From the NCBI RefSeq assembly GCF_003018235.1, contig NZ_CP027437.1: 64,000 nucleotides of DNA, one strand, 5' to 3'. Position 1 is the first letter of the stretch. Every line of letters begins with the position of its first letter. The DNA comes from Escherichia coli. GTDB taxonomy: Bacteria > Pseudomonadota > Gammaproteobacteria > Enterobacterales > Enterobacteriaceae. Shown here one piece after another: positions 33,140 to 63,689 of the stretch. The notes under the pieces were generated by a model. That model had not been told where the DNA came from. It saw nothing but the letters and a program-made list of their open reading frames with translations, and did no database searches. The translations under genes were made by a program, and so were the position numbers.

Positions 33140-33167
33140 AAAACCACGTTGATATTGCTCGCACTGG

Positions 33168-33254: not shown

Positions 33255-33288
33255 AACGAGGCGATATCAAAAAAAGTAAGATGACTGT

Positions 33289-33375
33289 GCGAAGGTGGCG
33301 GAATTGGTAGACGCGCTAGCTTCAGGTGTTAGTGTCCTTACGGACGTGGGGGTTCAAGTCCCCCCCCTCGCACCA
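33289..33375 (+). tRNA. leuQ: tRNA-Leu (CAG)
   Basis: identical third copy. Confidence 0.9.
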
Positions 33376-33413
33376 ATTATCTTTACTTCCTTTCTTGTTT
33401 CTTCCCTGATTTT

Positions 33414-44731: not shown

Positions 44732-46093
44732 GTGGAAAAAGAAAATATCACCCTCGATCCGCGTTCTTCATTTACTCCATCTTCGTCGGCAGATATTCCC
44801 GTGCCACCAGATGGATTAGTTCAACGCAGTACCCGAATTAAACGCATTCAAACCACCGCCATGTTGTTATTATTTTTTGCGGCGGTAATCAATTATCTCG
44901 ACCGCAGTTCGCTGTCGGTAGCAAATTTAACGATTCGTGAAGAATTGGGATTAAGTGCCACCGAAATCGGCGCTTTGCTCTCCGTGTTTTCACTCGCTTA
45001 CGGGATTGCGCAACTTCCTTGCGGCCCACTATTGGATCGTAAAGGCCCACGCCTGATGCTGGGACTGGGGATGTTCTTCTGGTCACTGTTCCAGGCCATG
45101 TCTGGCATGGTGCACAGCTTTACGCAGTTCGTGTTGGTGCGTATCGGTATGGGGATTGGTGAAGCGCCGATGAACCCATGTGGCGTAAAAGTCATTAACG
45201 ACTGGTTCAACATCAAAGAGCGCGGACGCCCGATGGGCTTCTTCAACGCAGCTTCTACCATTGGCGTTGCCGTAAGCCCACCGATTCTGGCGGCGATGAT
45301 GCTGGTGATGGGCTGGCGTGGGATGTTTATTACCATTGGTGTGCTGGGGATTTTTCTCGCCATTGGCTGGTATATGCTCTATCGCAACCGCGAGCACGTA
45401 GAACTGACTGCCGTTGAACAAGCTTATCTCAATGCAGGTAGCGTCAATGCCCGCCGAGATCCGCTCAGTTTTGCCGAATGGCGCAGCCTGTTCCGTAACC
45501 GCACAATGTGGGGAATGATGCTCGGATTCAGTGGCATCAACTACACTGCGTGGCTGTATCTGGCCTGGCTTCCTGGTTACCTGCAAACAGCCTATAACCT
45601 GGATTTAAAAAGCACAGGGTTGATGGCGGCTATCCCTTTCCTGTTTGGGGCTGCCGGGATGCTGGTCAACGGTTACGTTACTGACTGGCTGGTCAAAGGG
45701 GGAATGGCTCCGATTAAAAGCCGTAAGATCTGCATTATTGCCGGGATGTTCTGTTCTGCCGCCTTTACGCTGGTCGTACCGCAAGCGACAACATCCATGA
45801 CGGCGGTTCTGCTGATTGGCATGGCACTGTTCTGTATTCACTTTGCCGGAACATCCTGCTGGGGCTTGATCCACGTCGCAGTTGCTTCTCGCATGACGGC
45901 GTCGGTGGGCAGTATCCAGAACTTTGCCAGCTTCATCTGCGCCTCTTTTGCGCCGATCATTACTGGTTTTATTGTTGATACCACCCACTCATTCCGTCTG
46001 GCACTAATCATCTGCGGTTGCGTCACCGCAGCGGGAGCACTGGCGTACATCTTCCTGGTTCGTCAGCCGATCAACGACCCGCGTAAAGATTAA
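44732..46093 (+). CDS. lgoT: L-galactonate:H+ symporter (MFS)
   Basis: 453 aa; 12-TM MFS. Confidence 0.85.
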   Translation: MEKENITLDPRSSFTPSSSADIPVPPDGLVQRSTRIKRIQTTAMLLLFFAAVINYLDRSSLSVANLTIREELGLSATEIGALLSVFSLAYGIAQLPCGPLLDRKGPRLMLGLGMFFWSLFQAMSGMVHSFTQFVLVRIGMGIGEAPMNPCGVKVINDWFNIKERGRPMGFFNAASTIGVAVSPPILAAMMLVMGWRGMFITIGVLGIFLAIGWYMLYRNREHVELTAVEQAYLNAGSVNARRDPLSFAEWRSLFRNRTMWGMMLGFSGINYTAWLYLAWLPGYLQTAYNLDLKSTGLMAAIPFLFGAAGMLVNGYVTDWLVKGGMAPIKSRKICIIAGMFCSAAFTLVVPQATTSMTAVLLIGMALFCIHFAGTSCWGLIHVAVASRMTASVGSIQNFASFICASFAPIITGFIVDTTHSFRLALIICGCVTAAGALAYIFLVRQPINDPRKD

Positions 46094-46141
46094 ACTCCCT
46101 ATGCCCGATAACATTTTGCTTATCGGGCATTTTTATGGCGA

Positions 46142-47806
46142 TTAAAACGTTTCCCAGTTCTCCCCGCTATCTGCCACTGCCATTTTACGCGGCGTAGCTG
46201 GCGTCACGTTTTTTACCACAGCCGATGTTTCACGCTGCTGTTGCTGCTGTTGCTGAATCCGGAACACTGCCACAGCTTCGGTCAGGCGACTGGCCTGCTC
46301 TTCCAGCGCGGCGGCGGCAGCGGCAGATTCTTCCACCAGCGCAGCGTTCTGTTGAGTTACCCGGTCCATCTCAGCAACCGCTAAGCCAACCTGATCGATA
46401 CCACGGCTCTGCTCATCAGAAGCAGAAGCAATTTCGCCCATAATGTCCGTCACGCGGGTCACAGCGCTGACAATCTCCGCCATTGTTTCCCCGGCGCTTT
46501 CGACCAGCGTAGAGCCAACATCCACTTTCCCCACCGAGTCTTCAATCAGGCTTTTAATTTCGCGAGCCGCCTGGGCGCTGCGCTGGGCCAGATTACGCAC
46601 TTCGCCCGCGACCACCGCAAAACCGCGCCCTTGCTCACCCGCACGCGCAGCCTCAACCGCCGCGTTCAAAGCCAGAATATTGGTCTGGAAGGCAATGCCG
46701 TCAATTACGCTGATAATATCGGCGATTTTCTGCGAACTGGTGGAGATATCGCGCATGGTCTGCACCACGTTATCCACCACTTTGCCGCCGCGTTGCGCCG
46801 TTTCGGAAGCACTTAACGCCAGGTGGCTGGCCTGACGCGCATTTTCGGCGTTCTGCTTCACCGTTGCGGTCAGTTGCTCCATGCTGGCTGCCGTCTCTTC
46901 CAGCGAAGCGGCCTGTTGCTCGGTGCGCGAAGAGAGATCGTTATTGCCGGTGGCGATTTCGCTGGCACCGCTATAGATGGCATTGGCCCCGTTGCGCACA
47001 TCACCGACGGTACGCATCAGCTCTCCCTGCATATGGCGCAAACTCTCTGCCAGTTGCCCCATCTCATTAGAGCCATCCACCTCAATCGGTTTCACCAGAT
47101 CGCCGCCTGCAATATGACGAATGCTGTCAATCAGGCGATTCATTGGCGCTACCAACGAGGCTTTAATACCGAACCAGACGGCGAAGATGACCGCCAGTAC
47201 GACGATCATCACGCCCACCAGGATCCACATCGCCTGGCTGTAGGAGGCATTATTATCGCTGACGGCGATATCATAGAGCCGATCGTTTTGCTCCATGTAA
47301 GCCACATACTGCTTCTCGAAACCGTCCTGATATCCCTGGGTCGGCTGATCAAAGAACTCGTTGATTTTGCCTGCACCTAACAGTTGGATCAGCTCCGCCA
47401 GCGCATTGTGATAAATATCGTAATTACGTTTGATCTCTGCCGCTGCGGCGGTGCTCTGACGCGGGTCACGCGGCAACGCTTCGTAATCCGCCCAGTTTTT
47501 TTCCGCCTGTTTCAGCGAAATACTGGCACTCTGCATCAGCTCAGCAACGGTTGAACCGCTACCAATATTATTCTGATCCATCATGTAGCGGATACCCGCG
47601 CGGTTGAGGGTGTTACGCGTCTGCAACAACGCGACCCAGCTGCCATTCAGCGTGGATTGCTGCTGGCGAATGGTTTGTAAAACAGTGAAATTTTCTTTGT
47701 CATTCTTTAAGGCATTAAAGAACAGACCGCCTGATGTCAGTTGTAAAAGGCCAAAAACGGCCAAAACCAGCAGTAAGCTGGTCACAATTTTGATACGTTT
47801 TAACAT
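46142..47806 (-). CDS. tsr: methyl-accepting chemotaxis protein I (serine sensor)
   Basis: 554 aa; HAMP, methylation helices, C-terminal NWETF pentapeptide. Confidence 0.95.
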
Positions 47807-47924
47807 GTTTTCTCTTTCCTGTGGACCGATGCAAGATTTTCGGCCTGGAAAGGAAAAACTTTATGAAAAGGTGTAACCCGCCATCCATGGAAAAACCAGG
47901 CGCTGGTTATCAGATATTAAAAAG

Positions 47925-48371
47925 TTATTCATTATCGCCCGGGATGTCTTCTTGTCGGGAATTACCCAGAGCAATAAATTCCTCTAACAGATGGGTTAAC
48001 TGTTGCATTTTCTCGGCAGTAAACTGAGCTTCAATCTGCCGATAGGCCTCTTCAATCTGTGTCTGAGCGCGGTTATACAGCGCCTGCCCCTCTTTGGTCA
48101 GCGAGATATAGAGCTTCCGCTGATCATTGATCGGCTTTAATCGCAACACTAAACCGTCGCGTTCCATCCGCGTAAGGATCCCGGTCAGGCTTGGGCGCAA
48201 AATGCAGGCGCGATACGCCAGATCGTGAAAATCCATTGATGGGCTTTCCGCCAGAATACGCACGATGCGCCACTGTTGCTCAGTCAAATTATGCCGTTTA
48301 ACGATTGGGCGAAAATAACTCATCGCCGCTTCTCGCGCCTGGAGCAACGCAATGGTTAGAGAGTCGTGCAT
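47925..48371 (-). CDS. hpaR: MarR-family repressor of hpa meta-cleavage operon
   Basis: 148 aa from ATG 48371; divergent from hpaG. Confidence 0.8.
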   Translation of the reverse strand: MHDSLTIALLQAREAAMSYFRPIVKRHNLTEQQWRIVRILAESPSMDFHDLAYRACILRPSLTGILTRMERDGLVLRLKPINDQRKLYISLTKEGQALYNRAQTQIEEAYRQIEAQFTAEKMQQLTHLLEEFIALGNSRQEDIPGDNE

Positions 48372-48642
48372 TATCTTTCCCCTGAAAAATTCAAAATCAT
48401 TAATATAGAAACAGTTAATCATCACGTTACCGGGACTGCGCTGCCCCTGCAATTCTTCATTTTATCAAAATTGAGCATGTTTTGTTAACTTGCTGATATT
48501 TAATATTTTATTATCTTTAAATGTAAATGGTTTGTTAATTAGATCACATTTACATCACTTACTTTTGCCAAACTACGCAATCGGGAATAAAAGTAATCAT
48601 TAACATATTAATGATTAAGATGATCGAATCCGAGGAGTGGTA

Positions 48643-49932
48643 ATGAAAGGCACTATCTTCGCCGTAGCGTTGAACCATCGCAGCCAGCTTGATGCATGGC
48701 AGGAAGCGTTCCAGCAATCCCCCTACAAAACCCCGCCTAAAACTGCGGTCTGGTTTATTAAACCACGCAATACGGTGATTGGTTGCGGTGAACGGATTCC
48801 CTTTCCACAGGGTGAAAAGGTACTGAGCGGTGCGACTGTTGCGTTGATGGTGGGGAAAACGGCGACGAAAGTACGTGAAGAAGATGCGGCAGAGTACATC
48901 GCCGGATATGCGCTGGCTAACGACGTCAGCCTGCCGGAAGAGAGCTTTTACCGCCCGGCAATCAAAGCAAAATGTCGTGATGGATTCTGCCCCATTGGCG
49001 AAACCGTGGCTCTCAGCAATGTCGATAATCTGACTATCTATACCGAGATCAACGGGCGTCCTGCCGATCACTGGAATACCGCCGATTTACAACGTAACGC
49101 CGCACAGTTGCTGAGCGCCCTGAGCGAATTTGCCACGCTGAATCCAGGCGATGCCATTCTGCTCGGCACGCCACAGGCGCGCGTGGAAATACAGCCAGGC
49201 GATCGCGTGCGTGTTCTCGCAGAAGGTTTCCCGCCACTGGAAAATCCGGTAGTGGACGAACGTGAAGTGACCACGCGCAAGAGCTTCCCAACGCAGCCAC
49301 ACCCGCACGGCACGCTGTTTGCCCTCGGCCTGAACTACGCCGACCACGCCAGCGAACTGGAATTTAAGCCACCGGAAGAACCGCTGGTGTTCCTGAAAGC
49401 GCCGAATACCCTCACTGGCGATAACCAGACCTCCGTGCGCCCGAACAATATTGAATACATGCACTACGAAGCGGAGCTGGTGGTAGTTATTGGCAAGCAG
49501 GCGCGTAACGTCAGCGAAGCCGATGCCATGGATTATGTCGCGGGCTACACCGTGTGTAACGACTACGCCATTCGCGACTATCTGGAAAACTACTACCGCC
49601 CTAACCTGCGGGTAAAAAGCCGCGACGGACTGACGCCGATGCTTTCAACCATCGTGCCGAAAGAGGCGATCCCGGACCCGCATAATCTGACCCTTCGCAC
49701 CTTCGTCAACGGCGAGTTACGCCAGCAAGGCACCACCGCCGATCTGATCTTCAGCGTGCCCTTCCTGATCGCCTACTTAAGCGAATTTATGACCCTGAAT
49801 CCGGGCGACATGATCGCCACCGGCACACCAAAAGGCTTATCTGACGTGGTGCCTGGCGATGAAGTAGTGGTGGAAGTAGAAGGCGTGGGCCGCCTGGTGA
49901 ACCGAATTGTGAGTGAGGAAACAGCGAAATGA
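48643..49932 (+). CDS. hpaG: bifunctional isomerase/decarboxylase of the 4-hydroxyphenylacetate pathway (FAH family)
   Basis: 429 aa, duplicated FAH domains. Confidence 0.85.
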   Translation: MKGTIFAVALNHRSQLDAWQEAFQQSPYKTPPKTAVWFIKPRNTVIGCGERIPFPQGEKVLSGATVALMVGKTATKVREEDAAEYIAGYALANDVSLPEESFYRPAIKAKCRDGFCPIGETVALSNVDNLTIYTEINGRPADHWNTADLQRNAAQLLSALSEFATLNPGDAILLGTPQARVEIQPGDRVRVLAEGFPPLENPVVDEREVTTRKSFPTQPHPHGTLFALGLNYADHASELEFKPPEEPLVFLKAPNTLTGDNQTSVRPNNIEYMHYEAELVVVIGKQARNVSEADAMDYVAGYTVCNDYAIRDYLENYYRPNLRVKSRDGLTPMLSTIVPKEAIPDPHNLTLRTFVNGELRQQGTTADLIFSVPFLIAYLSEFMTLNPGDMIATGTPKGLSDVVPGDEVVVEVEGVGRLVNRIVSEETAK

Positions 49933-51395
49933 AAAAAGTAAATCATTGGATCAACGGCAAAAATGTTGCAGGTAACGACTACTTCCAGACCACCAATCCG
50001 GCAACGGGTGAAGTGCTGGCAGATGTGGCCTCCGGCGGTGAAGCGGAGATCAATCAGGCGGTAGCGGCAGCGAAAGAGGCGTTCCCGAAATGGGCCAATC
50101 TGCCGATGAAAGAGCGTGCGCGCCTGATGCGCCGTCTGGGCGATCTGATCGACCAGAACGTGCCTGAGATCGCCGCGATGGAAACCGCGGACACGGGCCT
50201 GCCGATCCATCAGACCAAAAATGTATTGATCCCACGCGCTTCTCACAACTTTGAATTTTTCGCGGAAGTCTGCCAGCAGATGAACGGCAAGACCTATCCG
50301 GTTGACGACAAGATGCTCAACTACACGCTGGTGCAACCGGTAGGCGTTTGTGCGCTGGTATCGCCGTGGAACGTGCCGTTTATGACCGCCACATGGAAGG
50401 TCGCGCCGTGTCTGGCGCTGGGCAATACCGCGGTGTTGAAAATGTCGGAACTCTCCCCGCTGACCGCTGACCGCCTGGGTGAGCTGGCGCTGGAAGCCGG
50501 TATTCCGGCGGGCGTGCTGAACGTGGTACAGGGCTACGGCGCAACCGCAGGCGATGCGCTGGTTCGTCATCATGACGTACGTGCCGTGTCGTTCACCGGC
50601 GGTACGGCCACCGGGCGCAACATCATGAAAAACGCCGGGCTGAAAAAATACTCCATGGAACTGGGCGGTAAATCGCCGGTGCTGATTTTTGAAGATGCCG
50701 ATATTGAACGCGCGCTGGACGCTGCCCTGTTCACCATCTTCTCGATCAACGGCGAGCGCTGCACCGCCGGTTCGCGCATCTTTATTCAGCAAAGCATCTA
50801 CCCGGAATTCGTTAAACGCTTTGCCGAACGCGCCAACCGTCTGCGCGTGGGCGATCCGAACGATCCGAATACCCAGGTTGGGGCGCTTATCAGCCAGCAA
50901 CACTGGGAAAAAGTCTCCGGCTATATTCGTCTCGGCATTGAAGAAGGCGCAACCCTGCTGGCGGGCGGTCCGGATAAACCGTCCGACCTGCCTGCGCACC
51001 TGAAAGGCGGCAACTTCCTGCGCCCAACGGTGCTGGCTGACGTTGATAACCGTATGCGCGTCGCCCAGGAAGAGATTTTCGGGCCGGTCGCCTGTCTGCT
51101 GCCGTTTAAAGACGAAGCTGAAGGTCTGCGCCTGGCAAATGACGTGGAGTATGGCCTCGCGTCGTACATCTGGACGCAGGATGTCAGCAAAGTGTTACGC
51201 CTGGCGCGTGGCATTGAAGCAGGCATGGTGTTCGTCAACACCCAGAACGTGCGCGACCTGCGCCAGCCGTTTGGCGGCGTAAAAGCCTCCGGCACCGGGC
51301 GTGAAGGCGGTGAGTACAGCTTCGAAGTGTTCGCGGAAATGAAGAACGTCTGCATTTCCATGGGCGAGCATCCAATTCCGAAATGGGGAGTCTGA
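49929..51395 (+). CDS. hpaE: 5-carboxymethyl-2-hydroxymuconate semialdehyde dehydrogenase
   Basis: 488 aa aldehyde dehydrogenase. Confidence 0.85.
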   Translation: MKKVNHWINGKNVAGNDYFQTTNPATGEVLADVASGGEAEINQAVAAAKEAFPKWANLPMKERARLMRRLGDLIDQNVPEIAAMETADTGLPIHQTKNVLIPRASHNFEFFAEVCQQMNGKTYPVDDKMLNYTLVQPVGVCALVSPWNVPFMTATWKVAPCLALGNTAVLKMSELSPLTADRLGELALEAGIPAGVLNVVQGYGATAGDALVRHHDVRAVSFTGGTATGRNIMKNAGLKKYSMELGGKSPVLIFEDADIERALDAALFTIFSINGERCTAGSRIFIQQSIYPEFVKRFAERANRLRVGDPNDPNTQVGALISQQHWEKVSGYIRLGIEEGATLLAGGPDKPSDLPAHLKGGNFLRPTVLADVDNRMRVAQEEIFGPVACLLPFKDEAEGLRLANDVEYGLASYIWTQDVSKVLRLARGIEAGMVFVNTQNVRDLRQPFGGVKASGTGREGGEYSFEVFAEMKNVCISMGEHPIPKWGV

Positions 51396-51396
51396 T

Positions 51397-52248
51397 ATGG
51401 GTAAGTTAGCGTTAGCCGCCAAAATCACGCACGTACCGTCGATGTATCTCTCTGAACTGCCAGGGAAAAACCACGGTTGCCGCCAGGGTGCGATCGACGG
51501 GCATAAAGAGATCAGCAAGCGTTGCCGGGAAATGGGCGTCGATACCATTATCGTTTTCGATACTCACTGGCTGGTCAACAGTGCTTATCACATCAACTGT
51601 GCAGACCATTTTGAAGGCGTCTACACCAGTAACGAGCTGCCGCATTTTATTCGTGACATGACCTACAACTACGAGGGCAACCCGGAGTTGGGGCAGCTTA
51701 TTGCCGATGAAGCGTTAAAACTCGGCGTGCGGGCAAAAGCGCACAATATTCCCAGCCTGAAACTGGAATACGGCACGCTGGTGCCAATGCGCTACATGAA
51801 TGAAGACAAGCACTTCAAAGTGGTCTCCATTTCGGCTTTCTGCACGGTTCACGATTTTGCCGACAGCCGCAAGCTTGGCGAAGCGATTTTGAAAGCAATC
51901 GAACAGTACGACGGCACCGTGGCGGTCCTTGCCAGCGGTTCGTTATCGCACCGCTTTATTGACGATCAGCGTGCAGAAGAAGGGATGAACAGCTACACCC
52001 GCGAGTTCGACCGCCAGATGGACGAGCGCGTGGTGAAGCTGTGGCGCGAAGGCCAGTTCAAAGAGTTCTGCAATATGCTGCCGGAGTACGCCGACTACTG
52101 CTACGGCGAAGGCAATATGCACGACACGGTGATGCTGCTGGGGATGCTCGGCTGGGATAAATACGACGGCAAGGTGGAGTTTATTACCGAGCTGTTCCCA
52201 AGCTCTGGCACCGGTCAGGTTAACGCTGTTTTCCCGCTTCCCGCGTAA
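51397..52248 (+). CDS. hpaD: 3,4-dihydroxyphenylacetate 2,3-dioxygenase (extradiol, LigB type)
   Basis: 283 aa. Confidence 0.85.
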   Translation: MGKLALAAKITHVPSMYLSELPGKNHGCRQGAIDGHKEISKRCREMGVDTIIVFDTHWLVNSAYHINCADHFEGVYTSNELPHFIRDMTYNYEGNPELGQLIADEALKLGVRAKAHNIPSLKLEYGTLVPMRYMNEDKHFKVVSISAFCTVHDFADSRKLGEAILKAIEQYDGTVAVLASGSLSHRFIDDQRAEEGMNSYTREFDRQMDERVVKLWREGQFKEFCNMLPEYADYCYGEGNMHDTVMLLGMLGWDKYDGKVEFITELFPSSGTGQVNAVFPLPA

Positions 52249-52257
52249 GGAACCACC

Positions 52258-52638
52258 ATGCCGCACTTTATCGTGGAATGTACTGAAAATATTCGTCAAG
52301 AAGCCCGCTTACCTGAGCTGTTTGCCAGTGTTAACACCGCACTGGCGGCGACGGGGATTTTTCCGCTTGGGGGAATACGTAGCCGGGCGCACTGGATCGA
52401 TACCTGGCAAATGGCTGATGGCAAGCACGATTACGCCTTTGTGCATATGACGCTAAAAATCGGCAGCGGGCGCAGTCTGGAAAGCCGTCAGGAAGTGGGC
52501 GAAATGCTGTTTGATCTGATTAAAACGCACTTCGCCTCACTGATGGAGAGCCGTTACCTGGCGCTTTCATTTGAGATTGCAGAGCTGCACCCGACGTTGA
52601 ATTTCAAACAGAACAACGTACACGCGTTGTTTAAATAA
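52258..52638 (+). CDS. hpaF: 5-carboxymethyl-2-hydroxymuconate isomerase
   Basis: 126 aa. Confidence 0.85.
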
Positions 52639-52656
52639 ATTTGCACCAGCTTCCAG

Positions 52657-52686
52657 GCCGGATGATAAGGCGCAGCCGCATCCGGC
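52657..52686. repeat. REP element
   Basis: GCCGGATGATAAGGCGCAGCCGCATCCGGC. Confidence 0.6.
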
Positions 52687-52705
52687 AATGCCACAGGATA
52701 TCGCT

Positions 52706-53509
52706 ATGTTCGATAAACACACCCACACCCTGATCGCCCAGCGTCTGGATCAGGCAGAAAAACAGCGCGAACAGATCCGCGCGATCTCGCTGGATTACCC
52801 GGAGATCACCATCGAAGACGCTTACGCGGTACAGCGTGAATGGGTTCGACTGAAAATCGCCGAAGGTCGCACGCTGAAAGGCCACAAAATCGGCCTGACC
52901 TCGAAAGCGATGCAGGCCAGCTCACAAATCAGCGAGCCGGATTACGGTGCCCTGCTGGATGACATGTTCTTCCACGATGGCAGCGATATCCCGACTGATC
53001 GCTTTATCGTGCCGCGCATTGAAGTGGAGCTGGCTTTCGTGCTGGCAAAACCGCTGCGTGGGCCAAACTGCACGCTGTTCGACGTCTACAACGCCACGGA
53101 CTATGTGATCCCGGCGCTGGAGCTGATCGACGCTCGCTGCCACAACATCGATCCGGAAACCCAGCGCCCGCGTAAAGTGTTCGACACCATTTCTGATAAC
53201 GCCGCCAATGCCGGGGTGATCCTCGGTGGTCGTCCCATTAAGCCCGATGAGTTGGATCTGCGTTGGATCTCCGCCCTGATGTATCGCAATGGCGTGATTG
53301 AAGAAACTGGCGTCGCCGCTGGCGTGCTGAATCACCCGGCAAACGGCGTAGCCTGGCTGGCGAACAAACTCGCACCGTATGACGTACAACTGGAAGCCGG
53401 GCAAATCATTCTCGGCGGTTCGTTCACCCGCCCGGTTCCGGCGCGTAAGGGCGACACCTTCCACGTCGATTACGGCAACATGGGCTCCATTAGCTGCCGC
53501 TTTGTTTAA
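52706..53509 (+). CDS. hpaH: 2-oxo-hept-3-ene-1,7-dioate hydratase
   Basis: 267 aa. Confidence 0.85.
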
Positions 53510-53519
53510 GGAGAGAACG

Positions 53520-54323
53520 ATGGAAAACAGTTTTAAAGCGGCGCTGAAAGCAGGCCGCCCGCAGATCGGATTATGGCTGGGGCTAAGTAGCAGCTACAGC
53601 GCAGAGTTACTAGCCGGAGCAGGATTCGACTGGTTATTGATCGACGGTGAGCACGCGCCGAATAACGTGCAAACCGTGCTCACCCAACTACAGGCGATTG
53701 CGCCCTACCCCAGCCAGCCGGTAGTACGTCCGTCGTGGAACGATCCAGTGCAAATCAAACAACTGCTGGACGTCGGCACACAAACCTTACTGGTGCCGAT
53801 GGTACAAAACGCCGACGAAGCCCGTGAAGCGGTACGCGCCACCCGTTATCCCCCCGCCGGTATTCGCGGTGTGGGCAGTGCGCTGGCTCGCGCCTCGCGC
53901 TGGAATCGCATTCCTGATTACCTGCAAAAAGCCAACGATCAAATGTGCGTGCTGGTGCAGATCGAAACGCGTGAGGCAATGAAGAAATTACCGCAGATTC
54001 TGGACGTGGAAGGGGTCGACGGCGTGTTTATCGGCCCGGCGGATCTGAGCGCCGATATGGGTTATGCCGGTAATCCACAGCACCCGGAAGTACAGGTCGC
54101 CATTGAGCAGGCGATCGTGCAGATCCGCGAAGCGGGCAAAGCGCCGGGGATCCTGATCGCCAATGAGCAACTGGCAAAACGCTATCTGGAACTGGGCGCG
54201 CTGTTTGTCGCCGTCGGCGTTGACACCACCCTGCTCGCCCGCGCCGCCGAAGCGTTGGCAGCACGGTTTGGTAATAGTTCTTCTATTTCGATGGCGAAGC
54301 AAAACAACAACTCTGTCTACTAA
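53520..54323 (+). CDS. hpaI: 4-hydroxy-2-oxo-heptane-1,7-dioate aldolase (HpcH/HpaI family)
   Basis: 267 aa from ATG 53520. Confidence 0.85.
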
Positions 54324-54344
54324 ACGTACGATGTGGAGCGCATC

Positions 54345-55700
54345 ATGACGACCTCTACCCTGCAATATAAAGATAATAAAACTGTTGAAATTGAACATCG
54401 TGTCATTAATAAATTATTTCGTCGCCTAATCATTTTTCTTTTTATTCTGTTTGTTTTTTCGTTTCTTGATCGCATCAATATAGGATTTGCCGGACTGACA
54501 ATGGGCAAGGATCTTGGCCTGACGTCCACAATGTTTGGCCTCGCCGCGACACTCTTTTATGTCACGTACGTCATGTGCGGGATCCCCAGTAATATGATGT
54601 TAGCGAAAATTGGCGCTCGTCGATGGATCGCTGGGATCATGGTGGTCTGGGGAGTTGCTTCCACCTGCACAATGTTTGCAACAAGCCCCGAAACACTCTA
54701 TCTACTGCGTATGCTGGTTGGTATTGCTGAGGCGGGTTTTTTACCTGGTATTTTGGTTTATCTGACCTGGTGGTTCCCGGCATATCATCGGGCCAGAGCC
54801 AATGCCTTATTTATGATAGCGATGCCAGTCACTATGATGCTGGGATCGATCCTTTCAGGCTACATTCTGGCCTTGGATGGACTGTGGAATCTAAAAGGCT
54901 GGCAATGGCTCTTTTTGCTGGAAGGTCTGCCATCGGTCATTCTTGGTGTCGTCACCTGGTTTTATCTCAACGACACACCAGACCAGGCGACCTGGCTTGA
55001 TGAAAACGAAAAACAGGCTTTAAAAACGATGATTCTCCGTGAACAAGAGAGTGCATTTGCCCATGCATCTGTTCCACGCTCAACCTTACGTGAAGTCCTG
55101 ACCCCAGCCATCATGCTATATACACTTGCTTATTTTTGCCTGACCAATACTCTGAGTGCGATTAATATCTGGACGCCGCAAATCCTACAGAGTTTCAATA
55201 CTGGCAGTAGCAACATCATGATTGGTTTGCTGGCGGCCATCCCCCAATTCTGCACAATTTTTGGCATGATCTGGTGGAGTCGTCGTTCCGACCGTCTTAA
55301 AGAACGCAAAAAGCATACGATTCTTCCCTACCTGTTTGCCGCTGCCGGATGGTTACTCGCTTCTGCGACTGATCACAGCCTCATTCAACTGAGCGGCATC
55401 ATTATGGCCTCAATGGGATCATTTACCGCAATGGCTATCTTTTGGACGACACCGGATCAAGTAATAAGCTTGCAATCGCGTGCCGTTGCGATGGCTGTCA
55501 TCAATGCTGTCGGTAATGTAGGTTCAGCAGTCAGTCCATTACTTATCGGTATTTTGAAAGATGCAACCGGCAGTTTTAGCTCAGGTTTGTGGTTTGTAGC
55601 AGGATTACTGGTACTGGGCGCGTTAGTCATGACCCGAATTCCTATGGGGAGTCGGGAACACTCTCTTTCATCTGAACTTATCGCACCAAAACCGCAATAA
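54345..55700 (+). CDS. hpaX: 4-hydroxyphenylacetate permease (MFS)
   Basis: about 451 aa. Confidence 0.8.
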   Translation: MTTSTLQYKDNKTVEIEHRVINKLFRRLIIFLFILFVFSFLDRINIGFAGLTMGKDLGLTSTMFGLAATLFYVTYVMCGIPSNMMLAKIGARRWIAGIMVVWGVASTCTMFATSPETLYLLRMLVGIAEAGFLPGILVYLTWWFPAYHRARANALFMIAMPVTMMLGSILSGYILALDGLWNLKGWQWLFLLEGLPSVILGVVTWFYLNDTPDQATWLDENEKQALKTMILREQESAFAHASVPRSTLREVLTPAIMLYTLAYFCLTNTLSAINIWTPQILQSFNTGSSNIMIGLLAAIPQFCTIFGMIWWSRRSDRLKERKKHTILPYLFAAAGWLLASATDHSLIQLSGIIMASMGSFTAMAIFWTTPDQVISLQSRAVAMAVINAVGNVGSAVSPLLIGILKDATGSFSSGLWFVAGLLVLGALVMTRIPMGSREHSLSSELIAPKPQ

Positions 55701-55709
55701 GGAGTCATG

Positions 55710-56600
55710 ATGTCCAGTGAAGCTATCTTTGAACATGGTTATGAAAATATTGATTTGGTCCGGGAATATGATGCCCGCTACGCTGGTGAAGATGTGCATT
55801 ATGAAACATTTGCCAGGTTAGCGAATTTCTTTGGACGCGATATGCGCCCTCACTGGCACGATAGATATTTTCAACTCCATTATCTGGTCACTGGACGCAT
55901 TACTTTACAGCTGGATGAGCACTTCTATTCTGTGCGCGCACCGCTTTTTGTACTAACACCACCATCGGTGCCACATACTTTCTTTACTGAGCCTGATAGC
56001 GACGGGCATGTTCTGACCGTACGTCAGGAGTTAATTTGGCCCCTGGTAGAAAAGCTCTGGCCTGGTAGTGGAGATGCCGCAATGCTACAAGGTATCTGTC
56101 TATCGCTGGAGGGAATGGAACATACACTGGCGGCATTAAATCATTATTGGCCGATAATATCCCTGGAGTTTCAACAAAATAAGCCAGGACGGGAAATTCT
56201 ATTGCAATCACTGGCGCAAAGTATTTTTACAATCCTACTGCGTGAAGCACCACCAAATGATATTTCAACATGCAGCGTGCGCGGCGAGATGTGTTTATTC
56301 CAGAAGTTTAATCGGCTGATTGACGAAAATTATCGCCAACATTTAATGGTCCCTGAATATGCAGCAATGCTCGGTATGAGTGAATCACGGCTTACCGAGC
56401 TGTGCCGACGTTTTGCCAATCAATCGCCGAAGAGATTGATTTTCGAACGAGTGAGCCGGGAAGCCAGACGGCTTCTGCTCTATAGCGAGCAAAGCATCAA
56501 CCAGATTGCCCTTGATCTTGGCTACAAAGATCCCGCCTATTTCGCCCGTTTTTTCAACCGAATGATGGGTTGCTCACCAACACAATTCCGTGGTCGCTGA
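55710..56600 (+). CDS. hpaA: AraC-family activator of hpaBC
   Basis: C-terminal AraC HTH; start 55707 or 55710. Confidence 0.8.
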   Translation: MSSEAIFEHGYENIDLVREYDARYAGEDVHYETFARLANFFGRDMRPHWHDRYFQLHYLVTGRITLQLDEHFYSVRAPLFVLTPPSVPHTFFTEPDSDGHVLTVRQELIWPLVEKLWPGSGDAAMLQGICLSLEGMEHTLAALNHYWPIISLEFQQNKPGREILLQSLAQSIFTILLREAPPNDISTCSVRGEMCLFQKFNRLIDENYRQHLMVPEYAAMLGMSESRLTELCRRFANQSPKRLIFERVSREARRLLLYSEQSINQIALDLGYKDPAYFARFFNRMMGCSPTQFRGR

Positions 56601-56626
56601 CCATTTATCAACCTGAGAGACTCGAC

Positions 56627-57565
56627 ATGAAAATATCTTTACGCTCACTATTTGTGGCGTGCCTGATTGCGCCAGTGGCATTCACCTACGCCTCCGAACC
56701 GCAAGAAATGAAAATTGTACTACTTGGAACGAAAGGTGGCCCTTCTTTATTAAAAGCTGACCGTTTGCCGATGGCAACGGCACTTATTATTGGCAATAAA
56801 ACATGGTTAATTGATGCTGGTTACGGGGCCAGCTTACAACTGGTAAAAAATAATATTCCACTGCGCCAGATTGATAATATTTTACTCACCCATTTACACA
56901 GTGATCATATTCTGGACTATCCCTCAGTCTTAATGAATGCATGGGCTAGCGGTCTGCAGGACAAAACTATTCATGTGTTCGGTCCGCCAGGCACCCGAGC
57001 CATGACCGCTGCCAGTTGGCAGGTCTTCGATCGGGACATCACACTGCGTATGGAAGAAGAAGGAAAACCCGATCCTCGCAAGCTCGTTACAGCTCAAGAT
57101 GTTGGTGAAGGCGTAGTTTATAAAGATGATACCGTGACCGTGACTGCATTAAAGGTTCCTCATTCTCCTTTCCCTGACGGTGAGGCTTTTGCTTATCGCT
57201 TCGACACACAAGGCAAGCGAATTGTCTTCTCAGGAGATACCTCGTACTTTCCCCCACTGGCAACTTTCTCAGAAGGCGCTGATATACTTGTGCATGAGGC
57301 CGTACATGAGCCCTCCGTCGCTAAGCTGGCAGACAGTATTGGCAATGGTAAAACACTGGCAAAAGCCATTGCTTCTCACCATACGACTATTGAGGATGTA
57401 GGCAAAATTGCCAATGAAGCAAAAGTGAAAAAACTCATCCTTAGCCACCTGGTACCAATCACCGTTCCGGATGAAACATGGAAGCAAGAAGCACAGAAAA
57501 ACTATTCAGGCCCTATCGTCGTTGGTCATGAAAATATGACGATTACCATTCCATTCGCCCCATAA
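56627..57565 (+). CDS. secreted MBL-fold metallo-hydrolase (HxHxDH)
   Basis: signal peptide MKISLRSLFVACLIAPVAFTYA then LTHLHSDHILD motif; inserted between hpaA and hpaB. Confidence 0.7.
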   Translation: MKISLRSLFVACLIAPVAFTYASEPQEMKIVLLGTKGGPSLLKADRLPMATALIIGNKTWLIDAGYGASLQLVKNNIPLRQIDNILLTHLHSDHILDYPSVLMNAWASGLQDKTIHVFGPPGTRAMTAASWQVFDRDITLRMEEEGKPDPRKLVTAQDVGEGVVYKDDTVTVTALKVPHSPFPDGEAFAYRFDTQGKRIVFSGDTSYFPPLATFSEGADILVHEAVHEPSVAKLADSIGNGKTLAKAIASHHTTIEDVGKIANEAKVKKLILSHLVPITVPDETWKQEAQKNYSGPIVVGHENMTITIPFAP

Positions 57566-57791
57566 AAAATTCCGTCCCCGTTAGCCCTTGTTAGCGGGGA
57601 ATATTATGATTTGCCTTACTGCAAGTTGATCACGATCGCAGTTTACTATTTAACTCCACCTTGCTGGCGAAAAGTACCAACGTTCGCCTGAAACGTCTCT
57701 TCCCGACAACCGCGTTCAACGCTTCAATTAAATAACAAAAACAACACACAAAATTAACAATCGTATTCCGATTAATACTGTAGAGGTCGAC

Positions 57792-59354
57792 ATGAAACCA
57801 GAAGATTTCCGCGCCAGTACCCAACGTCCGTTCACCGGGGAAGAGTATCTGAAAAGCCTGCAGGATGGTCGCGAGATCTATATCTATGGCGAGCGAGTGA
57901 AAGACGTCACTACTCATCCGGCATTTCGTAATGCGGCAGCGTCTGTTGCCCAACTGTACGACGCGCTGCACAAACCGGAGATGCAGGACTCTCTGTGTTG
58001 GAACACCGACACCGGCAGCGGCGGCTATACCCATAAATTCTTCCGCGTGGCGAAAAGTGCCGACGACCTGCGCCAGCAACGCGACGCCATCGCTGAGTGG
58101 TCACGCCTGAGCTATGGCTGGATGGGCCGCACCCCAGACTACAAAGCCGCTTTCGGTTGCGCACTGGGCGCGAATCCGGGCTTTTACGGTCAGTTCGAGC
58201 AGAACGCCCGTAACTGGTACACCCGTATTCAGGAAACTGGCCTCTACTTTAACCACGCGATTGTTAACCCACCGATTGATCGTCATTTGCCGACCGATAA
58301 AGTGAAAGACGTTTACATCAAGCTGGAAAAAGAGACTGACGCCGGGATTATCGTCAGCGGTGCGAAAGTGGTTGCCACCAACTCGGCGCTGACTCACTAC
58401 AACATGATTGGCTTCGGCTCGGCACAAGTGATGGGCGAAAACCCGGACTTCGCACTGATGTTCGTTGCGCCAATGGATGCCGATGGCGTGAAATTAATCT
58501 CCCGCGCCTCTTATGAAATGGTGGCGGGTGCTACCGGCTCGCCGTACGACTACCCGCTCTCCAGCCGCTTTGATGAGAACGATGCGATTCTGGTGATGGA
58601 TAACGTGCTGATCCCATGGGAAAACGTACTGATCTACCGCGATTTCGATCGCTGCCGTCGCTGGACAATGGAAGGTGGTTTTGCCCGTATGTATCCGCTG
58701 CAAGCCTGTGTGCGCCTGGCAGTGAAATTAGACTTCATTACGGCACTGCTGAAAAAATCACTCGAATGTACCGGCACCCTGGAGTTCCGTGGTGTGCAGG
58801 CCGATCTCGGTGAAGTGGTGGCGTGGCGCAACACCTTCTGGGCATTGAGTGACTCGATGTGTTCAGAAGCGACGCCGTGGGTCAACGGGGCTTATTTACC
58901 GGATCATGCCGCACTGCAAACCTATCGCGTACTGGCACCAATGGCCTACGCGAAGATCAAAAACATTATCGAACGCAACGTTACCAGTGGCCTGATCTAT
59001 CTTCCTTCCAGTGCCCGTGACCTGAACAATCCGCAGATCGACCAGTATCTGGCGAAGTATGTGCGCGGTTCGAATGGTATGGATCACGTCCAGCGCATCA
59101 AGATCCTCAAACTGATGTGGGATGCTATTGGCAGCGAATTTGGTGGTCGTCACGAACTGTATGAAATCAACTACTCCGGTAGCCAGGATGAGATTCGCCT
59201 GCAGTGTCTGCGCCAGGCACAAAGCTCCGGCAATATGGACAAGATGATGGCGATGGTTGATCGCTGCCTGTCGGAATACGACCAGAACGGCTGGACTGTG
59301 CCGCACCTGCACAACAACGACGATATCAACATGCTGGATAAGCTGCTGAAATAA
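57792..59354 (+). CDS. hpaB: 4-hydroxyphenylacetate 3-monooxygenase, oxygenase component
   Basis: 520 aa. Confidence 0.9.
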   Translation: MKPEDFRASTQRPFTGEEYLKSLQDGREIYIYGERVKDVTTHPAFRNAAASVAQLYDALHKPEMQDSLCWNTDTGSGGYTHKFFRVAKSADDLRQQRDAIAEWSRLSYGWMGRTPDYKAAFGCALGANPGFYGQFEQNARNWYTRIQETGLYFNHAIVNPPIDRHLPTDKVKDVYIKLEKETDAGIIVSGAKVVATNSALTHYNMIGFGSAQVMGENPDFALMFVAPMDADGVKLISRASYEMVAGATGSPYDYPLSSRFDENDAILVMDNVLIPWENVLIYRDFDRCRRWTMEGGFARMYPLQACVRLAVKLDFITALLKKSLECTGTLEFRGVQADLGEVVAWRNTFWALSDSMCSEATPWVNGAYLPDHAALQTYRVLAPMAYAKIKNIIERNVTSGLIYLPSSARDLNNPQIDQYLAKYVRGSNGMDHVQRIKILKLMWDAIGSEFGGRHELYEINYSGSQDEIRLQCLRQAQSSGNMDKMMAMVDRCLSEYDQNGWTVPHLHNNDDINMLDKLLK

Positions 59355-59371
59355 CGCAGCAGGAGGTTAAG

Positions 59372-59884
59372 ATGCAATTAGATGAACAACGCCTGCGCTT
59401 TCGTGACGCAATGGCCAGCCTGTCGGCAGCGGTAAATATTATCACCACCGAGGGCAACGCCGGGCAATGCGGGATTACGGCAACGGCTGTCTGCTCGGTC
59501 ACGGATACACCACCGTCGCTGATGGTGTGCATTAACGCCAACAGTGCGATGAACCCGGTTTTTCAGGGCAACGGTAAGTTGTGCGTCAACGTCCTCAACC
59601 ATGAGCAGGAACTGATGGCACGCCACTTCGCGGGCATGACAGGCATGGCGATGGAAGAGCGTTTTAGCCTCTCATGCTGGCAAAAAGGTCCGCTGGCGCA
59701 GCCGGTGCTAAAAGGTTCGCTGGCCAGTCTTGAAGGTGAGATCCGCGATGTGCAGGCAATTGGCACACATCTGGTGTATCTGGTGGAGATTAAAAACATC
59801 ATCCTCAGTGCAGAAGGTCACGGACTTATCTACTTTAAACGCCGTTTCCATCCGGTGATGCTGGAAATGGAAGCTGCGATTTAA
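59372..59884 (+). CDS. hpaC: 4-hydroxyphenylacetate 3-monooxygenase, flavin reductase component
   Basis: 170 aa. Confidence 0.9.
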   Translation: MQLDEQRLRFRDAMASLSAAVNIITTEGNAGQCGITATAVCSVTDTPPSLMVCINANSAMNPVFQGNGKLCVNVLNHEQELMARHFAGMTGMAMEERFSLSCWQKGPLAQPVLKGSLASLEGEIRDVQAIGTHLVYLVEIKNIILSAEGHGLIYFKRRFHPVMLEMEAAI

Positions 59885-60273
59885 GCTCCAGACCCTTCAC
59901 GTATTCGTCGAAGGGGCATTTTTATTGTGATCTCAATCACATATCCACCCGATGAATAATTCTTGCCCAACCGCTCACCGCCATTCCTGACCGCTTACAT
60001 CCCTAAAATAACCACTCAGTTATTTACCTTACTTTACGCGCGCGTAACTCTGGCAACATCACTGCAGGATAGCGGTCAATTTACCTCCTCAAACGCAACG
60101 CAAACCTAGAACGGCTTCGGCCTATGATTAACAAATTACTCTATGGATTTTGGTTTGCAGGAAGGCAGCAAGTGAGTGAACCAGGAGCTTACAACAGTAA
60201 GTGACAGGGGTGAACGAACCCAGCTGCGGCACCTGTAAGCCAAAAGACGACGAGTAAAATGCCAGGTTTTACT

Positions 60274-62424
60274 ATGGATACGAAAAAACTATTCAAGCAC
60301 ATACCCTGGGTGATTCTCGGAATCATCGGTGCATTCTGCCTCGCGGTAGTTGCATTACGTCGGGGGGAGCACGTCAGCGCCCTGTGGATCGTGGTCGCCT
60401 CTGTGTCGGTGTATCTGGTGGCGTATCGCTACTACAGTCTGTACATCGCCCAGAAGGTGATGAAACTCGACCCCACGCGCGCGACGCCTGCGGTTATTAA
60501 CAACGACGGTCTGAACTACGTTCCGACCAACCGTTACGTGTTGTTTGGTCACCACTTCGCCGCTATCGCCGGTGCTGGTCCGCTGGTGGGTCCGGTTCTC
60601 GCCGCGCAGATGGGCTACCTGCCTGGCACGCTGTGGCTGCTGGCGGGGGTAGTGCTGGCCGGTGCGGTACAGGACTTTATGGTGCTGTTTATCTCCTCTC
60701 GCCGTAACGGCGCATCTCTCGGTGAGATGATCAAAGAAGAGATGGGACCAGTACCGGGGACTATCGCGCTGTTTGGCTGTTTCTTAATCATGATCATCAT
60801 CCTCGCCGTCCTGGCGCTGATTGTGGTTAAAGCCCTGGCCGAAAGTCCGTGGGGTGTCTTCACCGTTTGCTCAACCGTACCGATTGCGCTGTTTATGGGT
60901 ATCTACATGCGCTTTATCCGTCCGGGGCGTGTGGGTGAAGTCTCTGTCATTGGTATCGTGCTGCTGGTTGCCTCTATCTACTTCGGTGGCGTGATTGCTC
61001 ACGATCCGTACTGGGGTCCGGCACTGACCTTTAAAGACACCACCATTACCTTCGCGCTGATTGGCTATGCGTTTGTTTCCGCACTGCTGCCGGTGTGGCT
61101 GATCCTCGCACCGCGCGACTATCTGGCAACCTTCCTGAAAATCGGTGTTATCGTCGGCCTGGCACTGGGTATCGTGGTGTTGAACCCGGAACTGAAAATG
61201 CCTGCGATGACCCAGTACATTGACGGTACTGGCCCGCTGTGGAAAGGCGCTCTGTTCCCGTTCCTGTTCATCACCATCGCCTGTGGTGCGGTATCTGGCT
61301 TCCACGCGCTGATCTCTTCCGGTACGACGCCGAAACTGCTGGCTAACGAAACCGACGCGCGTTTCATTGGCTACGGCGCAATGCTGATGGAGTCCTTCGT
61401 GGCGATTATGGCGCTGGTTGCTGCGTCCATCATCGAACCGGGTCTTTACTTCGCGATGAACACCCCGCCTGCTGGCCTTGGCATCACCATGCCTAACCTG
61501 CATGAAATGGGTGGCGAGAACGCGCCGATCATCATGGCGCAGCTGAAAGACGTTACCGCACACGCGGCAGCGACCGTCAGCTCCTGGGGCTTCGTGATTT
61601 CGCCAGAGCAGATCCTGCAAACCGCGAAAGACATTGGTGAGCCTTCTGTCCTGAACCGTGCAGGTGGTGCGCCGACGCTGGCGGTAGGTATCGCTCACGT
61701 GTTCCACAAAGTGCTGCCGATGGCTGACATGGGCTTCTGGTATCACTTCGGTATTCTGTTCGAAGCCCTGTTCATCCTGACCGCGCTGGATGCGGGTACC
61801 CGTTCTGGCCGCTTTATGCTGCAAGATCTGCTGGGTAACTTCATCCCGTTCCTGAAAAAAACCGACTCCCTGGTTGCCGGTATCATCGGTACGGCGGGCT
61901 GTGTGGGTCTGTGGGGCTACCTGCTGTATCAGGGCGTGGTCGATCCGCTGGGCGGCGTTAAGAGCCTGTGGCCGCTGTTCGGTATCTCCAACCAGATGCT
62001 GGCAGCCGTGGCGCTGGTACTGGGTACCGTTGTGCTGATTAAGATGAAGCGCACCCAATACATCTGGGTAACTGTTGTTCCGGCTGTATGGTTGCTTATC
62101 TGCACCACCTGGGCGCTGGGCCTGAAACTGTTCAGCACCAACCCGCAGATGGAAGGCTTCTTCTACATGGCAAGCCAGTACAAAGAGAAGATTGCTAACG
62201 GTACTGACCTGACGGCGCAGCAGATTGCCAACATGAACCACATCGTTGTGAACAACTACACCAACGCAGGCCTGAGTATTCTGTTCCTGATTGTGGTGTA
62301 CAGCATCATCTTCTACGGTTTCAAAACCTGGCTTGCGGTGCGTAACAGCGACAAACGTACTGACAAAGAAACACCGTACGTTCCAATCCCGGAAGGCGGC
62401 GTGAAGATCTCTTCGCACCACTAA
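60274..62424 (+). CDS. btsT: pyruvate/H+ symporter BtsT (CstA family)
   Basis: 716 aa from ATG 60274. Confidence 0.9.
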   Translation: MDTKKLFKHIPWVILGIIGAFCLAVVALRRGEHVSALWIVVASVSVYLVAYRYYSLYIAQKVMKLDPTRATPAVINNDGLNYVPTNRYVLFGHHFAAIAGAGPLVGPVLAAQMGYLPGTLWLLAGVVLAGAVQDFMVLFISSRRNGASLGEMIKEEMGPVPGTIALFGCFLIMIIILAVLALIVVKALAESPWGVFTVCSTVPIALFMGIYMRFIRPGRVGEVSVIGIVLLVASIYFGGVIAHDPYWGPALTFKDTTITFALIGYAFVSALLPVWLILAPRDYLATFLKIGVIVGLALGIVVLNPELKMPAMTQYIDGTGPLWKGALFPFLFITIACGAVSGFHALISSGTTPKLLANETDARFIGYGAMLMESFVAIMALVAASIIEPGLYFAMNTPPAGLGITMPNLHEMGGENAPIIMAQLKDVTAHAAATVSSWGFVISPEQILQTAKDIGEPSVLNRAGGAPTLAVGIAHVFHKVLPMADMGFWYHFGILFEALFILTALDAGTRSGRFMLQDLLGNFIPFLKKTDSLVAGIIGTAGCVGLWGYLLYQGVVDPLGGVKSLWPLFGISNQMLAAVALVLGTVVLIKMKRTQYIWVTVVPAVWLLICTTWALGLKLFSTNPQMEGFFYMASQYKEKIANGTDLTAQQIANMNHIVVNNYTNAGLSILFLIVVYSIIFYGFKTWLAVRNSDKRTDKETPYVPIPEGGVKISSHH

Positions 62425-62473
62425 CCGTGTTTAGCCCCGCTTCGGCGGGGCTTTGTTCTTATCAGAGTGAACT

Positions 62474-62677
62474 ATGTTTGGTAACTTAGGACAGGCAAAA
62501 AAATATCTCGGCCAGGCGGCAAAGATGTTGATTGGCATTCCAGACTACGACAACTACGTCGAGCATATGAAGACCAACCATCCCGACAAGCCGTACATGA
62601 GCTATGAAGAATTCTTCCGCGAACGCCAGAACGCGCGCTACGGCGGCGATGGTAAAGGCGGTATGCGCTGTTGTTAA
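62474..62677 (+). CDS. yjiX: DUF466 small protein YjiX
   Basis: 67 aa, directly downstream of btsT. Confidence 0.8.
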
Positions 62678-63644: not shown

Positions 63645-63654
63645 GGGGTTATGG

Positions 63655-63680
63655 GCCGGATAAGGCGCAGCCGCATCCGG
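63655..63680. repeat. REP element
   Basis: GCCGGATAAGGCGCAGCCGCATCCGG. Confidence 0.6.
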
Positions 63681-63689
63681 TCTGATATT

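Follow-up and report, generated by a model that had tools for sequence, protein, structure and literature searches.

The stretch of Escherichia coli DNA analysed here (the window, 64,000 nucleotides) carries, at positions 47925 to 59884, what is with near certainty the chromosomal cluster for 3- and 4-hydroxyphenylacetate catabolism (hpa; meta-cleavage of homoprotocatechuate), in the place between tsr and btsT where E. coli usually has it. All in all, the cluster is best explained, with good confidence, as a rare mosaic with an imported module of hpaX, hpaA and a twelfth gene, here named mbl. The hpa cluster itself is already known, and the mosaic allele and mbl are annotated automatically in RefSeq. 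A literature search found no paper describing the mbl gene or the mosaic variant.

The left chromosomal flank is formed by the serine chemoreceptor gene tsr (46142–47806, minus strand), recognised by the Pfam domains TarH, HAMP and MCPsignal and annotated as tsr in ST2747, the best-matching genome, and in BL21. The cluster opens with hpaR (47925–48371, minus strand), encoding the MarR-type repressor of the meta operon (TIGR02337, 200 bits, cut-off 121), whose product is 100% identical to that of BL21. The remaining genes lie on the plus strand. Specifically, these are hpaG for the bifunctional isomerase/decarboxylase (48643–49932; NF011750, 973 bits, cut-off 811), hpaE for the 5-carboxymethyl-2-hydroxymuconate semialdehyde (CHMS) dehydrogenase (49929–51395; TIGR02299, 739 bits, cut-off 638), hpaD for the homoprotocatechuate 2,3-dioxygenase (51397–52248; TIGR02298, 550 bits, cut-off 316), hpaF for the 5-carboxymethyl-2-hydroxymuconate (CHM) isomerase (52258–52638; NF011605, 264 bits, cut-off 215), hpaH for the hydratase (52706–53509; TIGR02312, 465 bits, cut-off 352), and hpaI for the aldolase (53520–54323; TIGR02311, 429 bits, cut-off 369). 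They are followed by divergent alleles of the 4-hydroxyphenylacetate (4-HPA) permease gene hpaX (54345–55700; TIGR02332, 862 bits, cut-off 615) and the AraC-type activator gene hpaA (55710–56600; TIGR02297, 491 bits, cut-off 275). Next comes mbl (56627–57565), encoding a predicted exported binuclear-metal hydrolase of 312 residues with the metallo-beta-lactamase (MBL) fold. The cluster closes with the two components of the 4-HPA 3-monooxygenase, the oxygenase HpaB (57792–59354; Pfam HpaB_N and HpaB; 99.6% identical to BL21) and the flavin reductase HpaC (59372–59884; Pfam Flavin_Reduct; 99.4% identical to BL21). On the right, the pyruvate/H+ symporter gene btsT follows (60274–62424, plus strand; Pfam CstA), as annotated in ST2747, BL21 and K-12.

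HpaR, G, E, D, F, H, I, X and A thus exceed the curated cut-offs of their NCBIfam equivalog models, while HpaB and HpaC were identified by their diagnostic Pfam domains. In tblastn comparisons, with gene starts taken from the RefSeq start codons of ST2747, each of the eleven canonical genes extends over its full length to one terminal stop, and internal stops are absent. The HpaR, G, E, D, F, H, I, B and C proteins are 97–100% identical to those of BL21 or ST2747. A preliminary description of this DNA had listed hpaR and hpaG-E-D-F-H-I-X-A-B-C as all present and intact, and these matches and full-length open reading frames (ORFs) confirm it for the eleven genes. As an inventory of the cluster the list is incomplete, as it overlooked the intact twelfth gene at 56627–57565.

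In K-12 MG1655, btsT and tsr are adjacent, separated by a 377-bp spacer, and hpa is absent; the DNA that the window holds in addition spans 47868–59970. The absence of the eleven-gene cluster from K-12 agrees with a published genome comparison (PMC3032704). The placement between tsr and btsT and the non-K-12 background given in the preliminary description are therefore right. Its term "island" holds for the presence of extra DNA relative to K-12 and is otherwise loose: the hpa genes and mbl account for all ORFs in 47868–59970, and no mobility genes are among them. No integrase, insertion sequence (IS) element, tRNA gene or flanking repeat was found at the cluster, and an Rfam scan gave no Rfam or tRNA match within 46000–62500.

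The hpa cluster of E. coli W, B and C, reportedly described by Prieto, Diaz and Garcia in 1996 and by Diaz et al. in 2001, occupies the same tsr–btsT site with the same order, hpaR and then hpaGEDFHI-hpaXA-hpaBC. It could be supposed that the window holds just such an ordinary cluster and nothing more, since its eleven genes stand in canonical order at the canonical site and nine of their products are 97–100% identical to those of BL21. This supposition has next to no probability. The canonical form consists of eleven genes with a canonical hpaX-hpaA pair and an hpaI–hpaX spacer bearing repetitive extragenic palindromic (REP) elements. The window departs from it by an intact gene between hpaA and hpaB and by HpaX and HpaA proteins only 71% and 59% identical to those of BL21. 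With the whole region as a megablast query, hpa was detected in 2073 of 5426 complete E. coli genomes; query coverage reached at least 80% in only 48 of these, and the remaining carriers cover about 72%.

The divergent segment between hpaI and hpaB

When aligned to BL21 by blastn, the window is 98% identical up to position 54271, where the match breaks abruptly within hpaI at about codon 251. Across hpaX and hpaA the nucleotide identity is 67–69%, positions 56603–57622 have no counterpart, and an identity of 98% returns at about 57721–57731, which is 62–71 bp upstream of the hpaB start codon. The segment between these breakpoints (54272 to ~57725, plus strand) measures about 3.4–3.45 kb. It comprises the last 16 or so codons of hpaI, hpaX, hpaA, mbl, a likely terminator and a putative HpaA operator, and ends approximately 65 bp upstream of hpaB. 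The GC content changes with it, from 0.567 between hpaG and hpaI to 0.464 in exactly this segment and back to 0.535 in hpaBC, compared with 0.533 for the corresponding canonical segment of BL21. Within the segment the GC content is even (0.466 in hpaX, 0.466 in hpaA and 0.462 in mbl), which indicates that the three genes came together. The spacer between hpaI and hpaX is reduced to 21 bp and is free of REP elements, whereas BL21 has 123 bp with a double REP. ST2747 carries an annotated "MBL fold metallo-hydrolase" between hpaA and hpaB, a gene that BL21 lacks. On these grounds, the allele of the window is very probably a rare mosaic that arose by xenologous replacement.

The segment was found in 48 of the 5426 complete E. 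coli genomes (0.9%). In every case the copy is complete, chromosomal and at least 99.2% identical. The listed sources of the carriers include humans, a dog, a cow, a baboon, chickens, ducks, wild birds, milk, vegetables and wastewater. No strain among the 48 bears the name B, C or W. The preliminary description had called the background "B/C/W-like" and recommended a comparison with the genomes of E. coli W and B. Run against BL21, this comparison bears out the resemblance for the flanks, which are 98% identical, and not for the allele itself: BL21 has the canonical eleven-gene form, from which the window differs in hpaX and hpaA, mbl and the 21-bp spacer.

HpaX and HpaA point to an origin outside the lineage shared by E. 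coli and Salmonella. HpaX is 71% identical to its counterparts in both BL21 and Salmonella, 84% to that of Pluralibacter and 88% to that encoded on the metagenome (Logan) contig L011; the corresponding values for HpaA are 59%, 80% and 84%. BL21 and Salmonella are 87–88% identical to each other in these two proteins, so the equally distant versions of the window belong to an outgroup lineage and are not diverged orthologues. The divergence of HpaA is spread evenly over the ligand-binding and helix-turn-helix (HTH) domains, and both HpaA and HpaX score above the curated cut-offs for functional equivalence. The nearest named relative, Pluralibacter gergoviae, has the order hpaI-hpaX-hpaA without mbl. 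In this species (L009, 4450–5523), a 357-residue dioxygenase of the glyoxalase fold (vicinal oxygen chelate) replaces the LigB-type HpaD. The metagenome contigs L011–L014 share the order hpaI-hpaX-hpaA-hpaB, again without mbl, and relative to them positions 56603–57622 of the window form a clean insertion of 1020 bp. Contig L027 has the exact layout of the window, with a variant-type hpaA end, mbl (85% amino acid identity), the hairpin and the same motifs upstream of hpaB, at 73% nucleotide identity. The arrangement hpaA-mbl-hpaB was therefore already present in the donor lineage.

Nine variant-type alleles have the same breakpoints of the segment. Compared in pairs, they differ by 0.5% within the segment, by 2.1% in the left flank and by 1.2% in the right one. 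The low diversity and the shared breakpoints fit an import that happened once, after which homologous recombination spread the segment or eroded its flanks. In this import, one homologous recombination very probably exchanged the stretch that begins near codon 251 of hpaI and ends some 65 bp before hpaB for a lower-GC module from another member of the Enterobacterales. The polarity might also be the reverse, with hpaX-hpaA-mbl ancestral in Escherichia and the common eleven-gene form derived by later replacement and loss of mbl. As mbl also stands directly after hpaA in Salmonella, the linkage could predate the split of the two genera. This alternative is very improbable: the 87–88% identity between canonical E. 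coli and Salmonella HpaX/HpaA is a normal distance for orthologues, while the 71% and 59% that separate the window from both mark it as the outgroup. Furthermore, the segment has a GC content of 46%, atypical of the cluster, is two to four times less diverse than its flanks, and occurs in only 0.9% of the genomes. A frameshift in hpaI was observed in one genome with the variant cluster (L022, strain A30, 7247–8052).

The layout of the segment suggests how it might be expressed. As hpaX starts 21 bp after hpaI and mbl 26 bp after the stop codon of hpaA, hpaX-hpaA-mbl would be transcribed by read-through from the HpaR-controlled promoter of the meta operon. The promoter region of hpaX itself was probably lost with the shortening of the spacer. 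A hairpin 3' of mbl (57575–57600, plus strand; −20.3 kcal/mol, z-score −3.5) is the likely terminator of this transcript. Promoter and terminator scans gave results at chance level, which were set aside. Upstream of hpaB, two direct repeats lie 21 bp apart (57669–57699, plus strand), namely GAAAAGTACC at 57669–57678 and GAAACGTCTC at 57690–57699. A spacing of 21 bp is typical for the half-sites of AraC-family regulators, and it is proposed that the repeats serve HpaA as its operator at the hpaBC promoter. BL21, L012 and L027 have conserved counterparts, and the copy in the window is of the donor type. The imported HpaA would thus activate hpaBC through imported repeats, and the cassette would have brought along both the regulator and the distal part of the promoter region on which it acts, operator included.

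The twelfth gene, mbl

The N-terminus of Mbl consists of MKISLRSLFVACLIAPVAFTYA, directly followed by SEPQ after the putative cleavage point, and shows a basic N-region, a hydrophobic core and a cleavage-type T-x-A motif. Of 41 aligned homologues, nearly all have a hydrophobic leader at the N-terminus. The AlphaFold2 model of Mbl has a predicted local distance difference test (pLDDT) score of 89.5, with low confidence for residues 1–26 and the first strand beginning at residue 27. Taken together, these features suggest a signal-peptide-like N-terminus and a putative export of Mbl. The HxHxDH motif takes the form HLHSDH, and the metal ligands H89, H91, H94, H179, D204, H252 and H274 are invariant among the 41 homologues, with D93 nearly so. 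The binuclear metal site therefore looks complete. With this motif, the distal His and Asp ligands and the alpha-beta/beta-alpha fold of the model, Mbl has the features of a competent member of the MBL superfamily.

The assignment within the superfamily is less straightforward. Pfam places Mbl in Lactamase_B_2, and every specific NCBIfam model, including those for RNase Z, GntH and PhnP, scores far below its cut-off. When a profile of the Mbl family was compared with solved structures, the arylsulfatase 8gyg of Pseudoalteromonas atlantica was matched over its full length (E = 7e-54, 186 bits), ahead of RNase Z (104.5 bits, E = 5.5e-29) and the beta-lactamase PNGM-1 (104.1 bits). Foldseek aligned the Mbl model with 8gyg at a template modelling (TM) score of 0.83–0.85, and PNGM-1, RNase Z and YhfI likewise match its fold strongly. 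The family S4 of SulfAtlas comprises ElaC-related MBL-fold arylsulfatases and was founded on AtsA of P. carrageenovora (PMC5066984). Mbl may belong to S4, as 8gyg leads by a wide margin (186 versus 104 bits), yet at only about 24–30% identity. An identity as RNase Z or RNase BN (ElaC) was rejected, as the best model reaches 127 bits against a cut-off of 252 and the signal-peptide-like segment is conserved. The gene hpaY of P. putida U was rejected as a previously named mbl, since it is a second hpaR.

The nonsynonymous divergence (dN) of mbl is 0.10–0.15 relative to Salmonella and L027; synonymous sites are saturated in these comparisons, and dN alone is therefore given in place of a dN/dS ratio. 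Within E. coli, nine alleles contain seven synonymous and two nonsynonymous polymorphic codons. By these sequence measures, mbl is under purifying selection.

Homologues of mbl recur next to genes for the catabolism of hydroxyphenyl compounds. In Salmonella enterica, the orthologue (77% identity to Mbl of the window) lies 13 bp after hpaA on the same strand and is the final gene of hpaGEDFHIXA. In Pseudomonas putida (53%) and Alcanivorax xiamenensis (57%), the homologue immediately follows hpaI as the final gene of the meta-cleavage operon. The Acinetobacter homologue (47%) belongs to a cluster encoding a glucose-methanol-choline (GMC) oxidoreductase, an aldehyde dehydrogenase and a copper amine oxidase, a plausible route from tyramine or tyrosol to 4-HPA. 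In Achromobacter (40%), a formylglycine (FGly) sulfatase, a flavin mononucleotide (FMN)-dependent dehydrogenase and TctC are encoded on one side and a dioxygenase similar to 4-hydroxyphenylpyruvate dioxygenase (HPPD) on the other, while the homologue of Leisingera (38%) adjoins a SulP anion transporter gene. As judged from these contexts, the link of mbl to hydroxyphenyl-compound catabolism is recurrent, not universal.

Rearrangements around mbl were seen in individual Salmonella contigs. In L028 and L029 (9001–10260), a deletion of hpaD through hpaA has produced an in-frame hpaE'-mbl fusion. The protein P0004, in which Mbl is fused to an aldehyde dehydrogenase domain, was accordingly discarded as a deletion artefact and does not represent a domain architecture. 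In L004 (1–7700), a Mu-like prophage is inserted just upstream of mbl.

A functional tie between mbl and hpa catabolism is moderately favoured by these gene contexts. Under the proposed mechanism, Mbl would act as a periplasmic scavenger that frees hydroxyphenylacetate or homoprotocatechuate from conjugates. HpaX would import the freed acid, and HpaBC together with HpaDEFGHI would convert it to pyruvate and succinic semialdehyde. Judging by the closest solved relative, aryl sulfate esters would be the likeliest substrates, with carboxyl esters as the alternative; that Mbl is specifically an arylsulfatase is nonetheless doubtful. The complete proposal, that the twelfth gene provides an accessory hpa function as an exported S4-like arylsulfatase or esterase, deconjugating sulfated or esterified hydroxyphenylacetates in the periplasm for HpaX and the Hpa pathway, is put forward tentatively and has a rather low probability.

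The principal competing explanation regards mbl as a passenger unrelated to hydroxyphenylacetate catabolism, such as a periplasmic phosphodiesterase or nuclease of the RNase Z/ElaC type, a weak PNGM-1-like beta-lactamase, or a lactonase. It is considered possible, although on balance unlikely. The general MBL/RNase Z superfamily assignment from NCBIfam and Pfam, with specific models below their cut-offs, and the strong fold matches to PNGM-1, RNase Z and YhfI are in its favour. So are the two non-aromatic gene contexts among eight, one of them ambiguous, and the relatives of the variant hpaXA that have no mbl, both described below. It does not readily account for mbl being the same-strand, tightly spaced final gene of hpa operons in four genera and two orders. 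The predicted exported location speaks against tRNA processing, RNase Z models give at most 127 bits against cut-offs of at least 252, and the family profile prefers 8gyg by about 80 bits over both RNase Z and PNGM-1.

Several observations weigh against import of the module and a catabolic role of mbl. Two of the eight sampled contexts have no clear link to aromatic catabolism: Castellaniella (50%), which lacks an aromatic context, and Photobacterium (49%), which lacks hpa or aromatic-catabolism genes and is ambiguous for the pyridoxal 5'-phosphate (PLP)-dependent decarboxylases encoded nearby. Relatives of the variant hpaXA exist without mbl (L011, L012, L014 and Pluralibacter), and mbl is therefore dispensable for the pathway. 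The identity of Mbl to the 8gyg arylsulfatase is low, as given above, and the natural substrate of S4 sulfatases is itself not known (PMC5066984). The donor was not found: a scan of genome contigs with Mbl gave only Salmonella arizonae and diarizonae, both at 77%, and a tblastn search of PLSDB plasmids gave nothing above 42% amino acid identity. In hpaA, the nine alleles have eight synonymous and seven nonsynonymous polymorphic codons, and one variant-cluster genome (L021, GDSC2227PM, 9439–10329) carries hpaA as a pseudogene with an internal stop; the imported regulator may thus be under relaxed, or at least not strong, constraint. Finally, the transcription units, the HpaA operator and the signal peptide are all read from sequence.

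Repeats and flanking DNA of the window

The preliminary description stated that REP elements flank several genes, which is mostly wrong. One such element exists, a palindrome of the form GCCGGATG-N14-CATCCGGC in the hpaF–hpaH spacer (52657–52686), which is the sole REP-type palindrome of the cluster. It was found with a relaxed palindrome pattern alone, for which 0.03 chance matches are expected; a search for the REP consensus with up to three mismatches gave no match. The other repeat, located upstream of btsT (60135–60258), is instead a 124-bp intergenic repeat resembling enterobacterial repetitive intergenic consensus (ERIC) sequences, also known as intergenic repeat units (IRU). It matches the ERIC2 core with three mismatches, where no match is expected by chance. 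This repeat is present in BL21 and absent from K-12, ST2747 and strain 19KM1831, and thus represents an insertion polymorphism.

The left part of the window contains DNA of a prophage or integrative element (~5100–30043) that abuts prfC at about 30044. Besides an IS21/IS100-like element, it contains genes for a tyrosine integrase, a Rha regulator, a terminase, a portal protein and a capsid protein. No complete E. coli genome covers this element to 80% or more, the best reaching 71% at 94% identity, and colinearity with 19KM1831 begins only at 30044. Three tandem tRNA-Leu genes (33052–33376), apparent as repeats in the self-comparison and annotated in 19KM1831, lie between yjjZ and rsmC. The window breaks off within mrr (63645–64000), a gene that BL21 and K-12 also have at this place. 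In other strains with the variant hpa cluster, the immigration control region at the mrr end is made up differently, e.g., with BrnA, Fic and GmrSD genes or a DUF262 gene.

Comparison with known systems and implications

Relative to the hpa cluster of E. coli B (BL21), the window is thus distinguished by xenologous hpaX and hpaA, by mbl between hpaA and hpaB, and by a distal hpaBC promoter region of the donor type. Salmonella enterica, with the arrangement hpaCB-hpaR and hpaGEDFHIXA-mbl, likewise carries the mbl orthologue right after hpaA. It differs in that its HpaX and HpaA belong to the canonical Escherichia-like lineage (87–88% identity to BL21), and in that hpaBC lie across hpaR at another chromosomal locus. 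The S4 arylsulfatases AtsA and 8gyg share with Mbl the ElaC/RNase Z-related MBL fold, the HxHxDH motif and a length of about 300 residues. These enzymes have been assayed on artificial substrates only, and they are not known to be linked to hpa clusters.

A functional analogy is offered by the penicillin G acylase (pac) of E. coli W: here, too, a hydrolase in the periplasm, with its gene close to hpa, would release an aromatic acid for catabolism. A role of this enzyme as a scavenger for conjugates of phenylacetyl and 4-hydroxyphenylacetyl groups has long been proposed, reportedly by Prieto et al. in 1996 and Diaz et al. in 2001. Unlike Mbl, it is an N-terminal nucleophile (Ntn) hydrolase that cleaves an amide bond, and its gene lies outside the hpa operons. 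In E. coli W, pac adjoins this chromosomal region (PMC3032704).

For the evolution of the cluster, the mosaic allele would mean that distant Enterobacterales can swap the genes for transport and regulation in a catabolic cluster as one cassette, along with the distal part of the hpaBC promoter region and the putative HpaA operator in it, and that recombination can afterwards spread this cassette in E. coli. In strains with this allele, HpaA is just 59% identical to the regulator used in 4-HPA biosensors and expression systems.

A predicted exported metallo-hydrolase repeatedly ends hpa operons in Escherichia, Salmonella, Pseudomonas and Alcanivorax, which suggests a missing first pathway step acting on conjugated substrates. 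Phenolic acids reach gut bacteria largely as host conjugates. Should the proposed role apply, host-sulfated 4-HPA or 3,4-dihydroxyphenylacetic acid (DOPAC) in the gut and sulfated phenolic acids in soil and sea would be candidate substrates, and a dedicated deconjugase would bear on the enteric use of metabolites derived from tyrosine and dopamine. It would also provide a first physiological substrate and context for the S4 sulfatase family.

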